A DNA stretch of 64,000 nt from a phage. The translations under genes were made by a program, and so were the position numbers. Numbering within the stretch: the stretch's first letter is position 1; every line of letters begins with the position of its first letter. The DNA is taken from NCBI GenBank assembly GCA_021081985.1, contig GCA_021081985.1_3639.1; one strand, given 5' to 3'. The notes beneath the pieces are model-generated. The model saw only the letters and a list, made by a program, of their open reading frames with translations. It was not told the origin of the DNA and did no database searches. Positions 1,930 through 22,122 of the stretch are shown here, one piece after another.

Positions 1930-4653
1930 TTACAATGCACAACTCTCGCAGTACGGATCTTCAACTGAACTATCTGCAATCAAAGGATAGTTCTTTTTAG
2001 TTTCTTCCTCAGCTTGTTTCTTCGCGTGAAGTTCCGCTGTCAAGGAATCACCAGCACCAACCTTAGAATTTAGATAGTACCACGTTTTCATACCCACTTT
2101 TGTTGCTTTGATAAGATATCCTAACTGCTCTTTCATAGAAATCTTACCATCTTTTTGTTTGGTGTAATCAAGGTAGAGATCTGCACTGATCGCCTGCCCA
2201 GTAAATTTCTGGAACAGGGCATAAATATCTATCAGATCATTTGTTGGTGTATCCCAAGCAGATGTGTAGTAATCTTTTAATTTTTCATAATCAGGAACGA
2301 TAAAAAGAACCTGACCTTGAGGTGATTTTTTAAAGATTACATGATCACGAACAGGGTATATACCGTTTGTTGTGTTTGTTGCCAAAGACGAACTTTCGTT
2401 CGGCATGTAGGCTTCCAACACACTGTTTCTGATCCCGCCAAAATCAACAATCTCCTTGCGTAAGGACTCCCAATCCTGTTTGAGTGTAGGATCCTTCACC
2501 ACACTATCAATCGTTTTGTTGTAAGTATCAATCGGTAGCCAGCCAGATGGGTATTTTGTTTTACCAATCCACTCACAAACACCACGTTCTTTAGCTAACC
2601 GTAGACTTGCCTTATGAAGGCTGTAGCTGTGCAATTCAGCTAAATCATGTACCAACTGTTTGCTCTCAGGAGAACCATAAGGAACTCTATGTGTCGCAAT
2701 ATAATGCGCCACGTTTGTGATGCCAACACCAATAGACCTACGTTTTTTAACTGTACTCTCCATATTTTCATACGGATAGGTCATGATATCCATCACGTTG
2801 TCAATCATGAGTACGGTATAGTATGCCACATCTTCATACTCTTCTTGTTTAACTCTGCCAGCAACCAACGATGCTAGGAAGCATAAAGCAACTTCACCAT
2901 CTTCAGCATCATGCTCGAAAATGTTACGCATGTCTGAATAGCCTTTTGTTGGAAGAGATATTTCTTGGCACTGCCCAGTTAGCAAGCCATTAAACACTCC
3001 CATATGGCGTTTTGGCTCAGAAAAACAGTAGGTGTCGTCAATACGCCCATGGTCTCTGATCTCAACAACAACTTCTTTTTGTCTGGCTACCGTGTTTTGG
3101 TCTGGCAAGTTTAATTCAATAAGCTGATCCCCAACTTTTAAATCACAAGCCATTTTCTCCAACGGGTTATCTTGTAAATAAAACCTGTGATAGGGGGTAC
3201 AAGTAAGCTCTTTACCTGTACTCGTCACTACAGTAATGAGTTTCCTATTACTACCTGTTTTTCTGACAATAACCTCTGACCACTCTTCTCCATTCCACAC
3301 CTCAACAATACGATCTTTAAGGTCGGAAATGGTTTGATACCCATCCTTAGTGAGAATTTTCGTTTCTGGCGCAACACACAAATTGCTTGAATAAATAATT
3401 TCCTTAAATGGGGTGTGTCTATTCATCTCGTCAGTCCAGTAAACATAAAGTCTACCAGTTTCTGTACGCTGGGTAATTATCTCCATTGCCAAATCTCTTG
3501 CCTTAATCCAAGTTTTTGGAATAGAAGCATCCTTGGCAATCTTATCAACTTCAGAGTCAAACTCCTCCATTGTCATAGTGAACATCCCATCATGGAGTTG
3601 TGGGGCATCTTTATAAGATACCAGCATCCAATCTAGGTTTTTCGCAACACGATTGACAAAAGATTTGTTAATACCAACGGAATAATCCATTGTGTTAATT
3701 CGCTTAGATGTCACAGTCATAGGGTTACGTAAGCGAATTAATTCATCAATTTGTGGATCAAGAGCTAAGAAAGAAACTGTTGCTGAACCACCTCTGGACT
3801 GTTGCCTATTTTCTTTTACCCCAGCATCAATACCACGATAATAAGGTAGTTTACCCATATGCTTGATTGTGTTTCCTCTAACACCATCACCAATAGAGCG
3901 AGATGCTAGATAATAACCGATACCAGCTTGATTAACAGTCATCGTATATGCAACTTCTCGTGCAACACCGATGGACTTAGCTGTATCGTCTGCCTTAATT
4001 ACACAACACGAAGCATATCCTGTTTTCCCGGTACGAAGCCCGTTAAGGTATGGTGTCGGGGCGTTGATCTTAAGATCAGACAAATATGTGTACAATTTTG
4101 TCACATCTTTAATACGACGAGCCTTGGGCATATTCTTCATAACTGCCATTGCCATCCCCATAAACATCATCTGCGGGGATTCAAAAAGGATGTCATTAAC
4201 AGCGTCCTTAATACCGTACTTATCACGGAACTGTTTCAATACAGCATACCCATAAGACAGATCTTTACTATGGTCGATAACAGCTTCTAATGCTGTTAAC
4301 TCCAAGCCTGTGTATTTCATATCTTCCCAATAGCCTGAATCAACCATACGGTGATAGAAATTTGGCAAACTTGGGATTTTTGTGAACCCACCAAAGGCTT
4401 CTTTATAAATCTGCCCGACTAAAACTCTACCAGCCATCCGTGCATGTGCTTCATCTTTACGGCTAATACATGCATCTATAATAGCTTGGTTCACTTCTTT
4501 GGTTGTGCAACCATCATATAGTCTTTTATATGCGTCAAGAGCAATGTGTGACCAGTTGCCGTTGCCATCATCACCAAAAATGGCAGCTTTGTTAAGGCGT
4601 TCAGGGTCGAATACTACCTCTGACCCATCGCTTTTAATAACTTTAGTAATCAA
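1930..4653 (-). CDS. nrdA: ribonucleotide reductase large subunit NrdA, interrupted by a mini-intein
   Basis: 907 aa; active-site SSNL-C..QEISLPTK matches the E. coli SNLCLEIALPT region once residues 426-561 are removed; remaining extein about 770 aa. Confidence 0.85.
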   Translation of the reverse strand: MITKVIKSDGSEVVFDPERLNKAAIFGDDGNGNWSHIALDAYKRLYDGCTTKEVNQAIIDACISRKDEAHARMAGRVLVGQIYKEAFGGFTKIPSLPNFYHRMVDSGYWEDMKYTGLELTALEAVIDHSKDLSYGYAVLKQFRDKYGIKDAVNDILFESPQMMFMGMAMAVMKNMPKARRIKDVTKLYTYLSDLKINAPTPYLNGLRTGKTGYASCCVIKADDTAKSIGVAREVAYTMTVNQAGIGYYLASRSIGDGVRGNTIKHMGKLPYYRGIDAGVKENRQQSRGGSATVSFLALDPQIDELIRLRNPMTVTSKRINTMDYSVGINKSFVNRVAKNLDWMLVSYKDAPQLHDGMFTMTMEEFDSEVDKIAKDASIPKTWIKARDLAMEIITQRTETGRLYVYWTDEMNRHTPFKEIIYSSNLCVAPETKILTKDGYQTISDLKDRIVEVWNGEEWSEVIVRKTGSNRKLITVVTSTGKELTCTPYHRFYLQDNPLEKMACDLKVGDQLIELNLPDQNTVARQKEVVVEIRDHGRIDDTYCFSEPKRHMGVFNGLLTGQCQEISLPTKGYSDMRNIFEHDAEDGEVALCFLASLVAGRVKQEEYEDVAYYTVLMIDNVMDIMTYPYENMESTVKKRRSIGVGITNVAHYIATHRVPYGSPESKQLVHDLAELHSYSLHKASLRLAKERGVCEWIGKTKYPSGWLPIDTYNKTIDSVVKDPTLKQDWESLRKEIVDFGGIRNSVLEAYMPNESSSLATNTTNGIYPVRDHVIFKKSPQGQVLFIVPDYEKLKDYYTSAWDTPTNDLIDIYALFQKFTGQAISADLYLDYTKQKDGKISMKEQLGYLIKATKVGMKTWYYLNSKVGAGDSLTAELHAKKQAEEETKKNYPLIADSSVEDPYCESCAL
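2971..3378 (-). mobile_element. mini-intein in nrdA (about 136 aa, no endonuclease domain, C-terminal Gln)
   Basis: Insert starts CVAPETKILT (block A-like), has LTCTPYHRF (TxxH block B-like) and DTYCFSEPKRHMGVFNGLLTGQ followed by +1 Cys; Cys codon at 3378-3376 checked. Confidence 0.6.
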
Positions 4654-11708: not shown

Positions 11709-12838
11709 AGTACCCCTACCCTTTTCAATTCTGTTGCTAGTGTTGTTTTATCATTGGGGTGTCTTTTCATGTAAACCATCTGGAAAATTACAGATGCCCA
11801 TTGACCAGCACTCATCTTTTTAAGGCTTCCATCCCAAGATGTAAATTCAACCCCGTTTGGAAACCATGCCTTATACTGGTCAACAATTGCTTCCCACATC
11901 TCTTTTTCTGTTCCAAGATGCCCGATCAAATTGAATGCCGCAGTATCCCCAAATCTTCCGTTTATATCAAAACACTGGTATGGTTTAATATTGTCAGAAA
12001 TATCACCACAAAGCATCTGATAACCGAAGAACTTTTTGCCCCAGCCTTTAACCTTATTACCTTCCATCCATATTTCACCCATTGAGTCATCAATCAGCAT
12101 TGGGGTTGGATGTTTCCACTGCTTCTCTCCGTTATCGCGCATCGTATCAAATAGCAGACCTGGTGTTCCTTTCTGATCCTTATCGAAGGATGCTATCAGG
12201 AAATTAAACTTACCTGTCTTCTTATAATTTTCCCACCCTGTGTACATTAGTACGGATAAGTAATCATCTGCTTCAACACCATTGATGACTTTTGCATTGT
12301 ACTTCTTCTTAACGTAATCTCGCGTTTCCTGTAAAAGCAACGGCCTGAGTAGATCTTCCCTATTACCTTTATATCTTTCTGGGGCAGGAAGCATAAGACG
12401 GAAATTATTCTCGCCACCAAGAACACCAACACCTTGCTTGCTACTAATTTCAAGATGATCAAAAATAGCATTGATCTTCATTTTGAGAAGATGAAGGCAA
12501 TTCTCAACAGGCTCCGGTGTTTGGATATCCTCAACAAGGAAGTCTTCCCTCGTCCAAGGTGTAAATGATTTTCCTGCGGCCTTTGCTTTCATTTCCATAT
12601 TGGCATTTTGGTCTTTTAGCCAACCGCCTACAACTTTTTTGGTTGATCCCCAAAACTCTGTGCGATTACGAAACTCTTTAGATTTCCCAGATTTAATATG
12701 CGTCGCTCGGATGGTTCTTTTTTCAGAACCAGCAGCCGATACGTAACATGTTTGATCTAAATCTAAGACAATTACACAATCATTTGTGATTTTATCTTTC
12801 CAGTTTTTATCGTATGGATACCCCACAACACCTCTCAA
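11705..12838 (-). CDS. flap endonuclease / 5'-3' exonuclease (RNase H-like)
   Basis: GVEADDYLS and LCGDISDNIKPY motifs typical of phage FEN/RNase H enzymes. Confidence 0.65.
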   Translation of the reverse strand: MRGVVGYPYDKNWKDKITNDCVIVLDLDQTCYVSAAGSEKRTIRATHIKSGKSKEFRNRTEFWGSTKKVVGGWLKDQNANMEMKAKAAGKSFTPWTREDFLVEDIQTPEPVENCLHLLKMKINAIFDHLEISSKQGVGVLGGENNFRLMLPAPERYKGNREDLLRPLLLQETRDYVKKKYNAKVINGVEADDYLSVLMYTGWENYKKTGKFNFLIASFDKDQKGTPGLLFDTMRDNGEKQWKHPTPMLIDDSMGEIWMEGNKVKGWGKKFFGYQMLCGDISDNIKPYQCFDINGRFGDTAAFNLIGHLGTEKEMWEAIVDQYKAWFPNGVEFTSWDGSLKKMSAGQWASVIFQMVYMKRHPNDKTTLATELKRVGVL

Positions 12839-13272
12839 GTATTACCTAAATAATCTTTCAAATAGCTAACGTCAAGTTCCCATTCCTGACGCTTACTTCT
12901 CTCACGATACAGAGCAAACGCCTCTTCAACATATTTTTCGGCTACATGTTGAGGGATGTTGTTAACTTTCATGAAATGCTTCAAAGCTATATGCCCTCTA
13001 CCTCGTAAACTAGCCAAACCAATATGTTTAACTTCGTGACACGATGGGCATAGTGCAATAAGACCTTTCAGGGTGATCTTACCATCTTCAAAATCCCATA
13101 CCTCGTGGCATTCAACAGGGTGTTTATGTCCTTTGCCACCGCAGATTTCACATTTATAACCTGCTTCTGCATAACATTTCTTTCTTACCTTGTCCCATTC
13201 TGATTTTGATAAGTAAGAACGTAAATTGTTGAACCATGCCGTTTTAGGTACTAGTTCAATAGTTAATCTCAT
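12835..13272 (-). CDS. HNH-like zinc-binding nuclease family protein (putative)
   Basis: CEICGG...HPVECHEVW...CPSCHEVKH Cys/His pattern. Confidence 0.35.
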   Translation of the reverse strand: MRLTIELVPKTAWFNNLRSYLSKSEWDKVRKKCYAEAGYKCEICGGKGHKHPVECHEVWDFEDGKITLKGLIALCPSCHEVKHIGLASLRGRGHIALKHFMKVNNIPQHVAEKYVEEAFALYRERSKRQEWELDVSYLKDYLGNT

Positions 13273-13450
13273 TCCGATTTCTCCCGAAGTACATATGCAA
13301 AATTCTCATCCAACTGGGCATTGGTAAAAGAGCCAGCAGAGAACATATCATTAGTGCCTTCAAATCATAATCTTGACAAACAAGCCATCCAATGCTTACC
13401 AAACATAAAGACAGGATAAAACTTAACAACACTATTAGCATATTTTTCAT
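13256..13450 (-). CDS. small hydrophobic membrane protein
   Basis: 64 aa, two hydrophobic segments. Confidence 0.25.
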   Translation of the reverse strand: MKNMLIVLLSFILSLCLVSIGWLVCQDYDLKALMICSLLALLPMPSWMRILHMYFGRNRNEINY

Positions 13451-13470
13451 AACAATCTATGTTCTATGTT

Positions 13471-13704
13471 TTAATGAAATATTCTTTTTGATGGGCAGCT
13501 TCCAGCACCTTCTTTAACCACTGTTTCTGTCCTATGCCCATCGCTATAAATACAGACTTTGGAATCACCATCACGATATTCTGCCTCAAGGCTCAAGGTG
13601 TTTGTGGTAGAAATTGCTAGAGGACTAAACAGAAGTGAGGACAGGAGGATAATGTTTTTAAATTTCATTTTTACCACCTTTGAAAAAGCCCGATGAAAGC
13701 TCAT
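13471..13704 (-). CDS. small secreted protein (signal peptide; probable start at internal Met near 13668)
   Basis: MKFKNIILLSSLLFSPLAIST signal-peptide-like N-terminus. Confidence 0.3.
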   Translation of the reverse strand: MSFHRAFSKVVKMKFKNIILLSSLLFSPLAISTTNTLSLEAEYRDGDSKVCIYSDGHRTETVVKEGAGSCPSKRIFH

Positions 13705-13709
13705 CGGGC
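13683..13709 (-). terminator. intrinsic terminator (minus strand)
   Basis: Plus strand aaaaaGCCCGATGAaagcTCATCGGGC; on the minus strand a 9-bp GC stem followed by a T-run. Confidence 0.5.
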
Positions 13710-13719
13710 ATACGGTATA

Positions 13720-14610
13720 TTATTTACCTGTAGGTAATGTTACAAACGGGGCTTGTGCTCCACTAGTCATATACACAGGTGTTACACCATTCCATTTATT
13801 AATTGCTTCAAGCTGCATAATCTCTGGATTTTTACGCAGGGCAGCACCACGTAGTTCAATAGACTCTGCATCACCTTTGGCAATCAAGATTTTAGCATCT
13901 GCTTCGCCTTGTGCCTGTAGGCGTTTAGACTCAGCCTCACCACGAGCAGCCTCGATACGTTTCTGAGCTTCAGCTTTCACTTGCTGAATTTCGTTTTCAC
14001 GAAGCAGTGCTTTTTGTGTTGCTTCGATCTTAGCATTGATGGAAGCCGTTACCTGTGGAGGATACACCAGATCGTCAGTATAAGACAGCTTCACAAGCAC
14101 GATACCAACAGGATCAAGTTTTTGTTTCAGATGCTTGGTTACACGCTCAAGCAGTTGTGTTTTTCCATCACCAGCCAGTGTACCGATATCCATTGAACCA
14201 GCTTCTTTGATCAAAGCATCAGAGATATTCTGGCGAATGTTTACCTCTGTAATTTCTTGCACACCTTTACGGTACGTCTGGAAAATAGTCGTTACTTTAG
14301 AACGATCAACATAATACTCAACACCAATTTTCGCAGAAACTGTCATAGAGTCTTTTGTCTGGAAATTGAATGGTTGGTCATAGTTATGCAACTGGTTAAA
14401 AGTCGGGAACTGATAAATCTCTTCGTTCCAAGTCAGCCAGTACTTACCTACCCCAACCTCTTGTTGTTGGACACCTTTTTCATCACCGTACAGATCAACT
14501 TTAACGCCAACGTAACCTGCTGGGACTGTTGCACGTTCACAACCTGTCAGGCCAATTGCGGAGACAGCAAGAATACCTGCAAAAATAACTCGTTTAATAG
14601 ATTTAAACAT
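13720..14610 (-). CDS. SPFH/band-7 (prohibitin/HflK-like) lipoprotein
   Basis: Lipobox LTGC after a hydrophobic N-terminus; band-7-like core; C-terminal coiled coil AEAQKRIEAARGEAESKRLQAQGEADAK. Confidence 0.6.
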   Translation of the reverse strand: MFKSIKRVIFAGILAVSAIGLTGCERATVPAGYVGVKVDLYGDEKGVQQQEVGVGKYWLTWNEEIYQFPTFNQLHNYDQPFNFQTKDSMTVSAKIGVEYYVDRSKVTTIFQTYRKGVQEITEVNIRQNISDALIKEAGSMDIGTLAGDGKTQLLERVTKHLKQKLDPVGIVLVKLSYTDDLVYPPQVTASINAKIEATQKALLRENEIQQVKAEAQKRIEAARGEAESKRLQAQGEADAKILIAKGDAESIELRGAALRKNPEIMQLEAINKWNGVTPVYMTSGAQAPFVTLPTGK

Positions 14611-14623
14611 TAAAACAATCTCC

Positions 14624-14836
14624 TTACTTTTTAAGTTTCCCAGTCTTCTTCTTAGAAGACTGTCCTAAGAACACCTTACGCCCCCAGACAAAAACAATCA
14701 TCGGAGACACAAACACCATTGCAAAACCACACATTACCATCAGTGTGTCTTTTGCAGACAGCATTGTTGGTACTACAAATCCAATGATGACACAGATAAA
14801 AACAAGAATACCAACGCAATTTAAATACGTCTTCAC
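14624..14836 (-). CDS. small two-TM membrane protein with basic C-terminus (holin-like candidate)
   Basis: 70 aa, two hydrophobic helices, C-terminal KKKTGKLKK. Confidence 0.3.
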   Translation of the reverse strand: MKTYLNCVGILVFICVIIGFVVPTMLSAKDTLMVMCGFAMVFVSPMIVFVWGRKVFLGQSSKKKTGKLKK

Positions 14837-14838
14837 AA

Positions 14839-15156
14839 TTATCCCTCACGACCAAACAGAATATCCACCTCAGCCATTTGCTCAACCTTTTCCTCAAGGT
14901 CTTTTCGCTTCTTACCCGCTTGGTATTGTCGGTCAAATTCTGCATTTATCATTGCATTGATAAATTTAGGGTCGTATCCGTGGCTTTCTTTTTCTACGGA
15001 TACAATATCTTTAAGCATGTCACTTGCGTCTTTTTTCATGATGCGAGCTTCAACACCTTCCAAGATGACTTTTTTCAGTCGATCGCGCTCAACAGGATCA
15101 GAAGGTAAAGTATTTTTCAGTTCAATTTTTGTTTTAGGCATACGTGGCATTTTCAT
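14839..15156 (-). CDS. hypothetical protein
   Basis: 105-aa ORF downstream of a promoter-like element. Confidence 0.3.
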   Translation of the reverse strand: MKMPRMPKTKIELKNTLPSDPVERDRLKKVILEGVEARIMKKDASDMLKDIVSVEKESHGYDPKFINAMINAEFDRQYQAGKKRKDLEEKVEQMAEVDILFGREG

Positions 15157-15180
15157 CTCCTCTGTCTACGTATAAATTTA

Positions 15181-15208
15181 ATTATAAAAATTTTATATGG
15201 TTTGTCAA
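15181..15208 (-). promoter_or_regulatory. sigma70-like promoter (TTGACA-16-TATAAT) on minus strand
   Basis: Minus-strand reading TTGACAaaccatataaaattttTATAAT upstream of the gene starting at 15156. Confidence 0.4.
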
Positions 15209-15214
15209 GGGGTA

Positions 15215-15421
15215 TTAAATAAAATCTACACCAATTAAATCACCATCACAACGAGCAATATTATCTGCCACACTGCTAAGTTCATAGACATAGCAAGTAT
15301 GAGCATATTTCTTAGCGCCACCCCAACGGCGCTTTACAACAAAGCGTACAACACACTTCTGAAACAGTGTTTCTGTACCACCGCGTTGTTCGATCTTCTT
15401 GATAAGGTCTTCGATATTCAC
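15215..15421 (-). CDS. hypothetical protein
   Basis: 68-aa ORF. Confidence 0.3.
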   Translation of the reverse strand: MNIEDLIKKIEQRGGTETLFQKCVVRFVVKRRWGGAKKYAHTCYVYELSSVADNIARCDGDLIGVDFI

Positions 15422-15433
15422 TTTTTACCACAC

Positions 15434-15461
15434 TTCCAAAACAAGCCCCTTATAAGGGGCT
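15434..15461 (-). terminator. palindromic hairpin, terminator-like (minus strand)
   Basis: AGCCCCTtataAGGGGCT with T-rich tract on the minus strand. Confidence 0.4.
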
Positions 15462-15482: not shown

Positions 15483-16172
15483 TTACACTTTAATAATCGG
15501 TTCAACAAAGGTAATTGGTTTCATAATTTTACCATTACCATCCATAAAGGCAACACGTTCACCGACCTGAACATGGATTACAGAATTATAACGTCCTTTT
15601 GAACGGCGTTCAATCTCTTTGCATTCAAACTCCAACATTTCTAGTTCTTTATCCTTGTAGTCAGGATATTTAACAAGCAGTTGTGTAATTGTTGGGAACT
15701 TAGAGTCGTTAGAATTAAGAACCTCTTCCATATTATACCCAAGATTGATATCCAATTTATAGCATAAAGCCACAACTTGTTTCAAAATCTCAGCATAATC
15801 AGAGATTTTCAACTTATCTTTATGTACCAAGTCAAGCAAACTACCGATTTGCAACTCAACCGTGTCTGAGGGAACCATGCATGACTCCCATTTTTCAGTG
15901 TCCCATTGCACCAAACGCAAAGCGTAAGAGCTTACGACAAAAAGATCACAGGCTGCATCAATAACCGCTGCCTTGTCGGATGATGATAAGGCTTCAATAA
16001 GCTCAGAAAGCTCCTCTTTAATAAGATTTGTTTGTAGTTTAATATCTGTTGACATTCCTCCACGACCAATCCTTGCTACCTCATTCCATTGGGCAACACG
16101 ATGACCATATGCAATCATGTTATCAGGCTTACTCATGGTTTCAAGTGTGGAATACATATTTTTTAAATTCAT
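15483..16172 (-). CDS. MazG-like nucleotide pyrophosphohydrolase (putative)
   Basis: IKEELSELIEALSSSDKAAVIDAACDL resembles the EExxE...D all-alpha NTP-PPase motif. Confidence 0.35.
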   Translation of the reverse strand: MNLKNMYSTLETMSKPDNMIAYGHRVAQWNEVARIGRGGMSTDIKLQTNLIKEELSELIEALSSSDKAAVIDAACDLFVVSSYALRLVQWDTEKWESCMVPSDTVELQIGSLLDLVHKDKLKISDYAEILKQVVALCYKLDINLGYNMEEVLNSNDSKFPTITQLLVKYPDYKDKELEMLEFECKEIERRSKGRYNSVIHVQVGERVAFMDGNGKIMKPITFVEPIIKV

Positions 16173-21566: not shown

Positions 21567-22122
21567 ACAGAGTCACATAGTGACTTGTGACAACCCGAAT
21601 CCATGATTGAGATAAACACACAGAGACAAACCTGTAGGGTTTGTTGATGTGGGTTTATCTCAGAATGGCTCATGAGGGTTAGATGATCACAAGCTATCAG
21701 CGCAGTGAGCATCTTACACACTCACGTATTGCCTGAAGAGTCTCATCGACTCATGCTTTCAGGCAAAACACTATGAACTCTATGATTCGAAATCATCGAA
21801 CCATACGATTCGACTCAATCGAATCATATCAACAAAAATATTTAAAATCAAGTCTTGACATTCTTCAAGACTTAATGTATTTTAAATAAATTTTATATAA
21901 TATATTATTATATATAATACGTAGTATTATATTATATTAAATTATATTATATAATTTATATTATATTAGATCATATTAAATAGATCATAGTATTATAATA
22001 CGTAGTATTATATTTAATAGATCTTATAAGTTAGTTTAATTTGATCAGTTAGTATTGTGTCCCCAAAACGGGGACATACCCATGTCCCTGAAATGGGGAC
22101 ATATGGGAGGGGTTGACATTGT
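21567..22122. promoter_or_regulatory. divergent intergenic control region (AT-rich repeats, palindromes, promoter-like boxes)
   Basis: 556 bp non-coding between opposed gene blocks; IR gagataaac..gtttatctc (about 21610-21662), IR tgcctgaa..ttcaggca (about 21731-21766), gattcga/cgaatcat repeats, IR aagtcttga..tcaagactt with TTGACA (21850-21873), AT-rich attatat repeats (21880-22050), paired GTCCC..GGGAC hairpins (22058-22102), TTGACA at 22113-22118. Confidence 0.45.

Follow-up and report, generated by a model that had tools for sequence, protein, structure and literature searches.

Inspection of a 64,000-nucleotide window of phage DNA (GenBank assembly GCA_021081985.1, contig GCA_021081985.1_3639.1) revealed a minus-strand module in which a small predicted membrane hairpin is encoded directly upstream of a lipoprotein with an SPFH (Band_7) domain. 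On balance, we lean toward a reading in which the two proteins assemble early in infection, on the periplasmic side of the host inner membrane, into a ring like that of HflK/C; less certainly, this ring would remodel or insulate that membrane. The SPFH domain and its family were already known and annotated; the near-universal hairpin partner and natural fusions of the two proteins, which none of the papers found mentions, provide a testable two-gene system. The core of the module comprises the following features, numbered as in the whole window.

13720-14610, minus strand: SPFH/Band_7 lipoprotein of 296 amino acids (Pfam Band_7, phrog_200, AlphaFold2, Foldseek)
14539-14610, minus strand: its lipoprotein signal peptide, residues 1-24, with the lipobox LTG-C (direct reading)
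13966-14529, minus strand: SPFH1 and SPFH2 domains, residues 28-215 (Band_7 match, AlphaFold2 model)
13831-14058, minus strand: long Ala/Glu-rich helix, residues 185-260, a coiled-coil 'wall' segment (AlphaFold2 model)
14624-14836, minus strand: two-transmembrane hairpin of 70 amino acids with two hydrophobic helices (phrog_1130)

The 296-residue protein matched Pfam Band_7 (PF01145) with E=2.4e-20 and 73.7 bits against a gathering cut-off of 23.6, the match covering residues 28-215 of the protein and positions 2-176 of the 176 in the profile, and it matched phrog_200 'lipoprotein' over residues 2-294 with E=2.4e-87. Its N-terminus, MFKSIKRVIFAGILAVSAIGLTG followed at the predicted cleavage site by CERAT, contains a basic n-region, a hydrophobic core, and the lipobox L-T-G-C (residues 21-24), and fits the signal-peptidase-II lipoprotein pattern [LVI][ASTG][GA]C within the first ~35 residues. 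Cys24 is encoded at 14539-14541, the +2 residue is glutamate, and an equivalent lipobox is present in most close homologs. In the AlphaFold2 model, which had a predicted local distance difference test score (pLDDT) of 79, a beta-rich SPFH1 domain and an alpha/beta SPFH2 domain were followed by a single unbroken helix of 76 residues (185-260) and a low-confidence C-terminus bearing the invariant motif KW.G..P...PF. Membrane-proximal SPFH1 was the most conserved part of the protein, with 23 of the 54 invariant alignment columns falling within residues 26-100.

Foldseek neighbors of this model were protomers of HflC/HflK, prohibitin, stomatin, erlin, QmcA, and flotillin (E 6e-15 to 1e-8), and all of the top structural neighbors belonged to ring or cage assemblies. 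Because every solved full-length protein of this architecture is a cage protomer, we infer by analogy that the phage protein would also assemble into a ring or cage. The invariant C-terminal motif was disordered in the monomer model, as expected of a cap formed between subunits. The protein was 90% identical to PVP-SE1 gp117. Within the Vequintavirinae, the phage group to which we assign the window below, it was 80-90% identical over most members and 50% identical in the most distant one (locus L085), compared with 36-58% for the hairpin, 41-77% for a 103-residue protein encoded upstream, and 43-64% for a 65-residue protein encoded downstream in the same set. This higher identity argues that the SPFH protein is under strong purifying selection.

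Many phage records label this protein a 'serine protease', a label that we rejected because only Band_7, and no protease family, was detected with Pfam and NCBIfam. A role as a component of a defence system was likewise rejected, as PADLOC returned just a 15.9-bit match to a fragment of SspF. Public records also call the gene 'transposase', and in a Bruynoghevirus record (Pseudomonas phage WRAIR_EPa83, L088) an opposite-strand open reading frame (ORF) of 1314 nucleotides is annotated in place of the SPFH gene at 2450-3274 on the plus strand.

The earlier note, made from the sequence of the window alone, had described a Band_7 lipoprotein with a C-terminal coiled coil, which is borne out by the Band_7 score, the lipobox, and the modeled helix, so that the refuting condition named in that note, lack of a Band_7 match, did not apply. 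The note had also raised the idea that the protein might act as an HflK/C-like regulator of FtsH, which fared less well. The best PDB sequence match, although weak, was HflC (E=3.6e-4 with the single sequence, 6.5e-5 with the family profile), and NCBIfam gave weak matches to HflK and HflC. As in the E. coli HflK/HflC-FtsH complex (PDB 7VHP, 7WI3, 9CZ1), SPFH1, SPFH2, a long helix, and a C-terminal segment follow one another, and the SPFH domain is predicted to be periplasmic and to sit on the inner membrane. In a lambdoid prophage, moreover, the module is part of the early operon on the cI side, ahead of xis and int, the operon that contains cIII in lambda. A phage cage of this kind might trap FtsH hexamers in the periplasm and shift the degradation of phage or host proteins, in the manner of lambda cII/cIII control. 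We consider such mimicry unlikely for several reasons. First, the scores for HflK (TIGR01933; 43.7 bits) and HflC (TIGR01932; 22.6 bits) failed the equivalog cut-offs of 159.4 and 134.4, identity to HflK/C was ~20%, and prohibitin, stomatin, and erlin matched equally well. Second, a single SPFH gene is present per operon, here and in all related loci, with no adjacent hflK-hflC paralog pair that could supply a heteromeric complex. Third, related SPFH genes occur in phages of Gram-positive bacteria and in haloarchaeal viruses. The phage protein also differs from HflK/C in having a lipid anchor in place of the N-terminal transmembrane helix and a dedicated two-transmembrane partner. Because its scores lie below the equivalog cut-offs, the 13720-14610 product is, as judged from its sequence, a bona fide SPFH protein and not an HflK or HflC ortholog.

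The partner protein starts at a GTG codon at 14836, with the Shine-Dalgarno sequence GAGGG 6 nucleotides upstream, and its sole family match was phrog_1130 'membrane protein' (E=2.5e-21, residues 1-64). The N-terminus carries a net charge of +1, the loop 0, and the C-terminal tail +8, a pattern that predicts a hairpin whose two ends, including the basic tail, are cytoplasmic and whose turn, VPTMLSAKDT, is periplasmic. The description in the earlier note of a two-transmembrane protein with a basic tail thus holds. We rejected NfeD as the identity of this partner, since Pfam detected no NfeD domain in it and a PDB search relaxed to E<=10 did not bring up YbbJ. A word-indexed homology search with the 70-residue sequence recovered only five near-identical proteins, and the hairpin family was instead traced through gene neighborhoods.

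The SPFH protein was found by tblastn in 565 of 50,697 phage genomes (~1%), representing many host genera and phage types. A profile of its homologs matched 532 IMG/VR contigs, and when 1.84 billion cluster representatives (50% identity) were searched exhaustively with a profile, 476 clusters matched at E<=1e-30. Of the 80 IMG/VR loci retrieved, 79 had a hairpin ORF of 55-75 codons as the immediate upstream neighbor of the SPFH gene, often with a 4-nucleotide ATGA overlap; the single exception was a truncated SPFH copy. These upstream ORFs encode two hydrophobic helices joined by a turn of the form P-x-[LIM]-x-S-[SA]. Hairpin and SPFH genes are arranged in the same way in SSU5, Burkholderia phage phi1026b, P2-like P88, a lambdoid prophage, and a Salmonella Enc34-like prophage, and in phages of Gram-positive bacteria a different small membrane protein occupies the hairpin position. 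When 5,426 complete E. coli genomes were searched at the DNA level, just two short plasmid matches came up, and the module is therefore not a host core gene; it appears to be an accessory gene set spread by horizontal transfer among unrelated phages.

Hairpin and SPFH domain were joined in one polypeptide in no fewer than 15 of the 150 best cluster representatives, in which the hairpin was detected by a hidden Markov model with E=2.7e-14 to 0.011. From the N-terminus, these fusions contain the hairpin, a basic linker, a third hydrophobic segment ending in a lipobox cysteine, and the SPFH domain. A confident AlphaFold2 model of one fusion from a phage-like contig (pLDDT 87; predicted template modeling score 0.71) assigned residues 3-30 and 35-58 to the two helices of the hairpin. 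The Rosetta-stone fusions and the translational coupling of the separate genes described below argue for a 1:1 physical complex between hairpin and SPFH protein, and the conserved core of the module consists of these two proteins only. Fusions P0132, P0135, P0136, P0141, P0144, P0147, and others retain a complete lipoprotein signal in mid-polypeptide, a hint that signal peptidase II may process them internally. In P0140, the order is reversed, with SPFH preceding the hairpin.

Two further observations concern the hairpin gene itself. In the lambdoid prophage (Stx2a_14744 record, L093), the hairpin gene at ~3810-4000 on the plus strand is unannotated. In PVP-SE1-type relatives, an extra ORF of ~54 codons lies between hairpin and SPFH genes (PVP-SE1 gp116, 6884-7048 in L001, with equivalents in L006-L013); this ORF is absent in the window phage, where the two genes are 13 nucleotides apart.

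The pairing of a small membrane protein with an SPFH protein has a cellular parallel in SPFH-NfeD operons (E. coli QmcA-YbbJ, PDB 8Z5G; YqiK-YqiJ), in which the gene for a small membrane protein adjoins and is co-expressed with an SPFH gene. Natural NfeD-SPFH fusions exist, as do the phage fusions found here. The phage partner differs, however, in consisting of a two-transmembrane hairpin without the OB-fold domain of NfeD, and the phage SPFH domain is predicted to be periplasmic rather than cytoplasmic.

Several lines of evidence bear on the side of the membrane that these proteins occupy. First, the lipobox was replaced by an uncleaved N-terminal hydrophobic anchor in 39 of 120 close homologs, with the first SPFH strand following directly. 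Second, the positive-inside rule assigns to the fusions a topology in which the N-terminus is in, the turn out, the linker in, the third helix out, and the SPFH domain out. Third, the most conserved part of the hairpin was its predicted periplasmic turn (P-x-L-x-S-S/A). These features, together with the charge pattern of the hairpin and the conservation of membrane-proximal SPFH1, point to a predicted location of the SPFH domain and the hairpin turn at the inner membrane, on its periplasmic side, the arrangement seen in HflK/C.

Signals for expression of the module were found on both sides of the core genes.

15181-15208, minus strand: sigma-70 consensus promoter, TTGACA-16 nucleotides-TATAAT, 12/12 match
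14839-15156, minus strand: first operon gene, an ORF of 105 amino acids (phrog_639 'transcriptional regulator')
13688-13709, minus strand: intrinsic terminator GCCCGATGA-GCTT-TCATCGGGC followed by TTTTTC, 10 nucleotides past the SPFH stop codon

The promoter was the sole perfect sigma-70 consensus in the 64-kb window, where 0.10 would be expected by chance, and this suggests that the operon of 103-residue protein, hairpin, and SPFH protein may be among the most strongly host-transcribed immediate-early units of the phage. In PVP-SE1, a promoter is annotated at the equivalent place. The first gene likely starts at its second ATG (15150), which is preceded by the Shine-Dalgarno sequence GGAG at 15157-15160 and gives the 103-residue form annotated in Escherichia phage vB_EcoM_TH18; this gene accompanies the module in the Vequintavirinae only. 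The SPFH gene starts at an ATG at 14610, its Shine-Dalgarno sequence AAGGAG overlapping the hairpin stop codon, and the hairpin is apparently translationally coupled to it. The terminator combines a 9-bp G+C-rich stem with a T-run. Of 65 distinct loci, 23 (35%) had a terminator-like hairpin after the SPFH gene, compared with 71 of 431 control ORFs (16%). We rejected a terminator after the SPFH gene as a general rule, as the enrichment was only moderate and the element is absent in PVP-SE1-like relatives.

We also scanned 104 neighboring genes from 26 distinct loci or phage lineages with Pfam and PHROG profiles. The neighbors included DNA polymerase A, Enc34-type and gp2.5-type single-stranded DNA-binding proteins, a PD-(D/E)XK nuclease, RecA, a clamp, and a primase, as well as methyltransferases, nucleotide kinases, RusA, Tad2-like proteins (twice), Tad3, and NADAR. 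Elsewhere the module lay beside RtcB, primase, and SNF2 genes, in a T4-like region of small early ORFs, or, in P2-like P88, in the early operon between cox and a replication gene. These contexts, the terminator hairpins, and the sole consensus promoter point to early expression of an accessory, host-directed function, probably driven by host RNA polymerase. The module is thus best described as an accessory early 'host-takeover' unit, neither a structural component nor a replication enzyme. Unrelated phages repeatedly carried genes for anti-defence proteins (Acb2/Tad1-like, Tad2-like twice, Tad3, and NADAR) at a distance of a few genes from the SPFH module; the Acb2/Tad1-like gene (218-520 in L094) lies two genes upstream of a fused copy.

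The same neighborhoods bear on lysis timing, which had been raised at the outset as a possible role of the locus. A hairpin that is small, spans the membrane twice with both ends predicted inside, and ends in a very basic tail could in principle be a class II holin or pinholin with the lipoprotein as its regulator, or the pair could be spanin-like and time lysis together, since an inner-membrane protein encoded beside a lipoprotein superficially resembles Rz/Rz1. The context largely refutes both versions, and we regard a lysis device as extremely improbable. The hairpin has no holin or spanin family match and no periplasmic domain, the lipoprotein is a 296-residue SPFH protein and not a small proline-rich o-spanin, and transmembrane-anchored variants of it could not reach the outer membrane. 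The module has an early consensus promoter, sits in a replication block, and had no holin, endolysin, or spanin among the 104 neighbors in 26 lineages. It is not part of a lysis cassette.

Early expression and an envelope site of action would also suit superinfection exclusion or protection from 'lysis from without', in which an early envelope complex blocks DNA entry or damage by later phages. T4 Imm and Sp and HK97 gp15 act in this way, and known exclusion proteins are small early membrane proteins or lipoproteins; immediate transcription from a host-type promoter and horizontal spread of an accessory module among unrelated phages fit this role as well. Exclusion proteins, however, are usually lineage-specific and evolve fast, whereas the SPFH protein is at least 54% identical across unrelated phages. 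In temperate phages, the module occupies early lytic operons and not the moron positions that are expressed in lysogens, and the literature that we searched holds no experimental hint of exclusion. We therefore assign this role a low probability.

A third envelope function, counter-defence, was suggested by the anti-defence genes noted above and by early expression. Here the scaffold would neutralize membrane-disrupting effectors of abortive infection (the transmembrane effectors of CBASS, Thoeris, and Pycsar, or RexB-like channels) or repair the damage that they cause. A cellular parallel comes from the Bacillus subtilis YdjG/YdjH-YdjI (SamGHI)-PspA system, in which small membrane proteins also stand alongside an SPFH protein: YdjGH reportedly recruit the SPFH protein YdjI, which links the membrane-repair protein PspA to the membrane, and the system serves membrane protection and stress signaling (PMC8581546, bioRxiv 10.64898/2026.02.06.704340). 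YdjI differs in that it is cellular, faces the cytosol, and has no sequence relation to the phage protein beyond the SPFH superfamily. The neighborhood argument is one of guilt by association in few cases, early accessory regions hold many unrelated genes, and PADLOC and other libraries gave no informative match. Counter-defence, accordingly, seems to us quite improbable.

In the mechanism that we favor, the hairpin-SPFH module would be transcribed right after infection by host RNA polymerase from the consensus sigma-70 promoter, and transcription would end at the intrinsic terminator. The inner-membrane hairpin of ~60-70 residues would be made in a coupled fashion with the SPFH protein, to which it is fused in some phages, and the SPFH domain would face the periplasm, held by a lipid anchor here and by an uncleaved N-terminal helix in homologs. 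Oligomerization through the long helix and the conserved C-terminus would create a ring or dome on the periplasmic face of the inner membrane, and 1:1 incorporation of hairpins, one per SPFH subunit, would presumably add a palisade of transmembrane helices enclosing a patch of membrane. With less certainty, the phage might use this structure early in infection to remodel or insulate the inner membrane of its host, perhaps by stabilizing the energized membrane or by sequestering host membrane proteins.

Four considerations weigh against this mechanism. First, the lipoprotein could have another destination. The enterobacterial Lol rule has Asp at +2 as the signal for retention in the inner membrane. 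In the window protein this residue is Glu, the commonest one at that place among homologs (E 36, G 15, D 8, S 6), so that the protein might be sorted to the outer membrane by the E. coli rule. A prophage-encoded HflK/C-like SPFH protein of Pasteurella multocida, PM0222, which may or may not belong to the phrog_200 clade, shares an envelope location and is reported to be present in outer-membrane vesicles and to act as a virulence factor in the lysogen (PMC9872710). Second, the case for ring formation is one of analogy. Third, many of the loci are kin to one another, so the counts of linked and fused genes do not represent independent events. Finally, the physiological role that we propose is a guess among several options.

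The first of these points would find its fullest expression in an outer-membrane lipoprotein that acts independently of the hairpin, either as a lysogenic-conversion or virulence factor, as PM0222 might suggest, or by masking a receptor in the way of T5 Llp and phi80 Cor, in keeping with the lack of a Lol-avoidance signal at +2. This alternative must contend with the 39 of 120 close homologs that are transmembrane-anchored, with the fusion of at least 15 cluster representatives to an inner-membrane hairpin, with the mere 4 residues that separate the lipid-bearing Cys from the first SPFH strand, and with the window phage being a virulent-type myovirus, and we judge it very unlikely. We rank insulation of the membrane or sequestration of clients first, followed by FtsH capture, exclusion, and counter-defence, with outer-membrane or virulence roles and control of lysis well below.

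Downstream of the terminator, three further genes or ORFs were considered.

13471-13668, minus strand: secreted small protein of 65 amino acids (phrog_4641), with signal peptide MKFKNIILLSSLLFSPLAIS and two Cys
13256-13450, minus strand: hydrophobic ORF of 64 amino acids without a clear Shine-Dalgarno sequence, overlapping the start of the HNH gene
12835-13272, minus strand: HNH endonuclease gene (phrog_5200, E=4.6e-72), directly downstream of the module

The first of these can be read as a 77-residue ORF (13471-13704), but the ATG that opens this longer form falls within the terminator stem, and in TH18 the shorter form is the one annotated; the gene therefore most likely starts at the ATG at 13668 (Shine-Dalgarno sequence GGTGG) and encodes a protein of 65 residues with a predicted cleavable signal peptide. 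It lies beyond the terminator, is kept in the Vequintavirinae only, and is outside the core module. The 64-residue ORF, conserved only in the nearest relative TH18, is of doubtful coding status. The initial proposal of a cluster of three small hydrophobic proteins around the lipoprotein thus stands for the upstream hairpin, a conserved partner, and does not extend to the lineage-specific 65-residue protein past the terminator or to the doubtful ORF. The HNH gene, whose start overlaps that ORF, was 72-78% identical across the Vequintavirinae, and the order 103-residue protein, hairpin, SPFH, 65-residue protein, HNH is retained within this group.

The locus region was 95% identical to TH18, and the SPFH gene alone was ~81% identical to PVP-SE1-type phages. 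From these identities, we assign the window to a myovirus of the Vequintavirinae. Minus-strand genes occupy positions 1 to ~21.6 kb and include those for an exonuclease, HNH, a MazG-like protein, a ligase, and Sir2, with functions in replication and nucleotide metabolism; the hairpin-SPFH locus lies inside this early/replication block, and plus-strand genes follow beyond ~22 kb. At ~21600-22100, gene strand and the sign of the GC skew switch together where the two blocks abut, and a divergent promoter region is therefore probable here. Between the MazG-like gene (15483-16172) and an ORF of 68 codons (15215-15421), a terminator-like hairpin that forms a perfect palindrome on both strands, AGCCCCTTATAAGGGGCT, was found at 15444-15461 and could act bidirectionally.

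Homologs of the window protein have been seen before, and it is itself a member of the phrog_200 family of phage genes that includes PVP-SE1 gp117, SSU5_062, phi1026b gp48, and Vi01-like gp200. Annotations in the family read 'SPFH domain-containing lipoprotein' or 'band 7 protein', and 'serine protease' is also used, in error. Where papers name such genes, they call the role unclear or only speculate about it (PMC13239085, PMC10269572, PMC10892097, PMC1524935). Our literature search for a demonstrated function of the family gave only mentions in genome annotations and one experimental paper, that on PM0222, and in none of the papers found was there a mention of the hairpin partner or the fusions. 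Matches to 'band 7' in a phiCbK paper referred to gel bands and not to SPFH and were discarded.

A bolder version of the favored mechanism is that hairpin and SPFH protein build a near-closed fence around a patch of inner membrane within minutes of infection, directed against membrane-targeting abortive-infection effectors or incoming rival phages, and that the fusions are cut internally by signal peptidase II. We offer it as a speculation with a modest chance of being right. Each subunit would contribute two or three transmembrane helices and an SPFH wall; if true, the fence would be a general counter-defence or exclusion organelle and not a regulator of proteolysis, and the cut in the polytopic fusion precursor would free both subunits in a 1:1 ratio.

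Structures of SPFH cages (HflK/C, prohibitin, stomatin, flotillin, and erlin) date from 2022-2026, and the physiological logic of these assemblies is poorly understood. Our analysis corrects misannotations of the phage genes ('serine protease' and 'transposase' labels, unannotated hairpin genes, and a wrong-strand ORF) and indicates that phages hold a compact version of the SPFH system under strong selection. With two parts, a hairpin of 60-70 residues and an SPFH protein of ~280 residues, early expression, and no need of it for virion structure, the module offers a tractable, minimal SPFH-corral system. If its role should prove to be exclusion or counter-defence, it would represent a new mechanistic class in the conflict between phages and their hosts.

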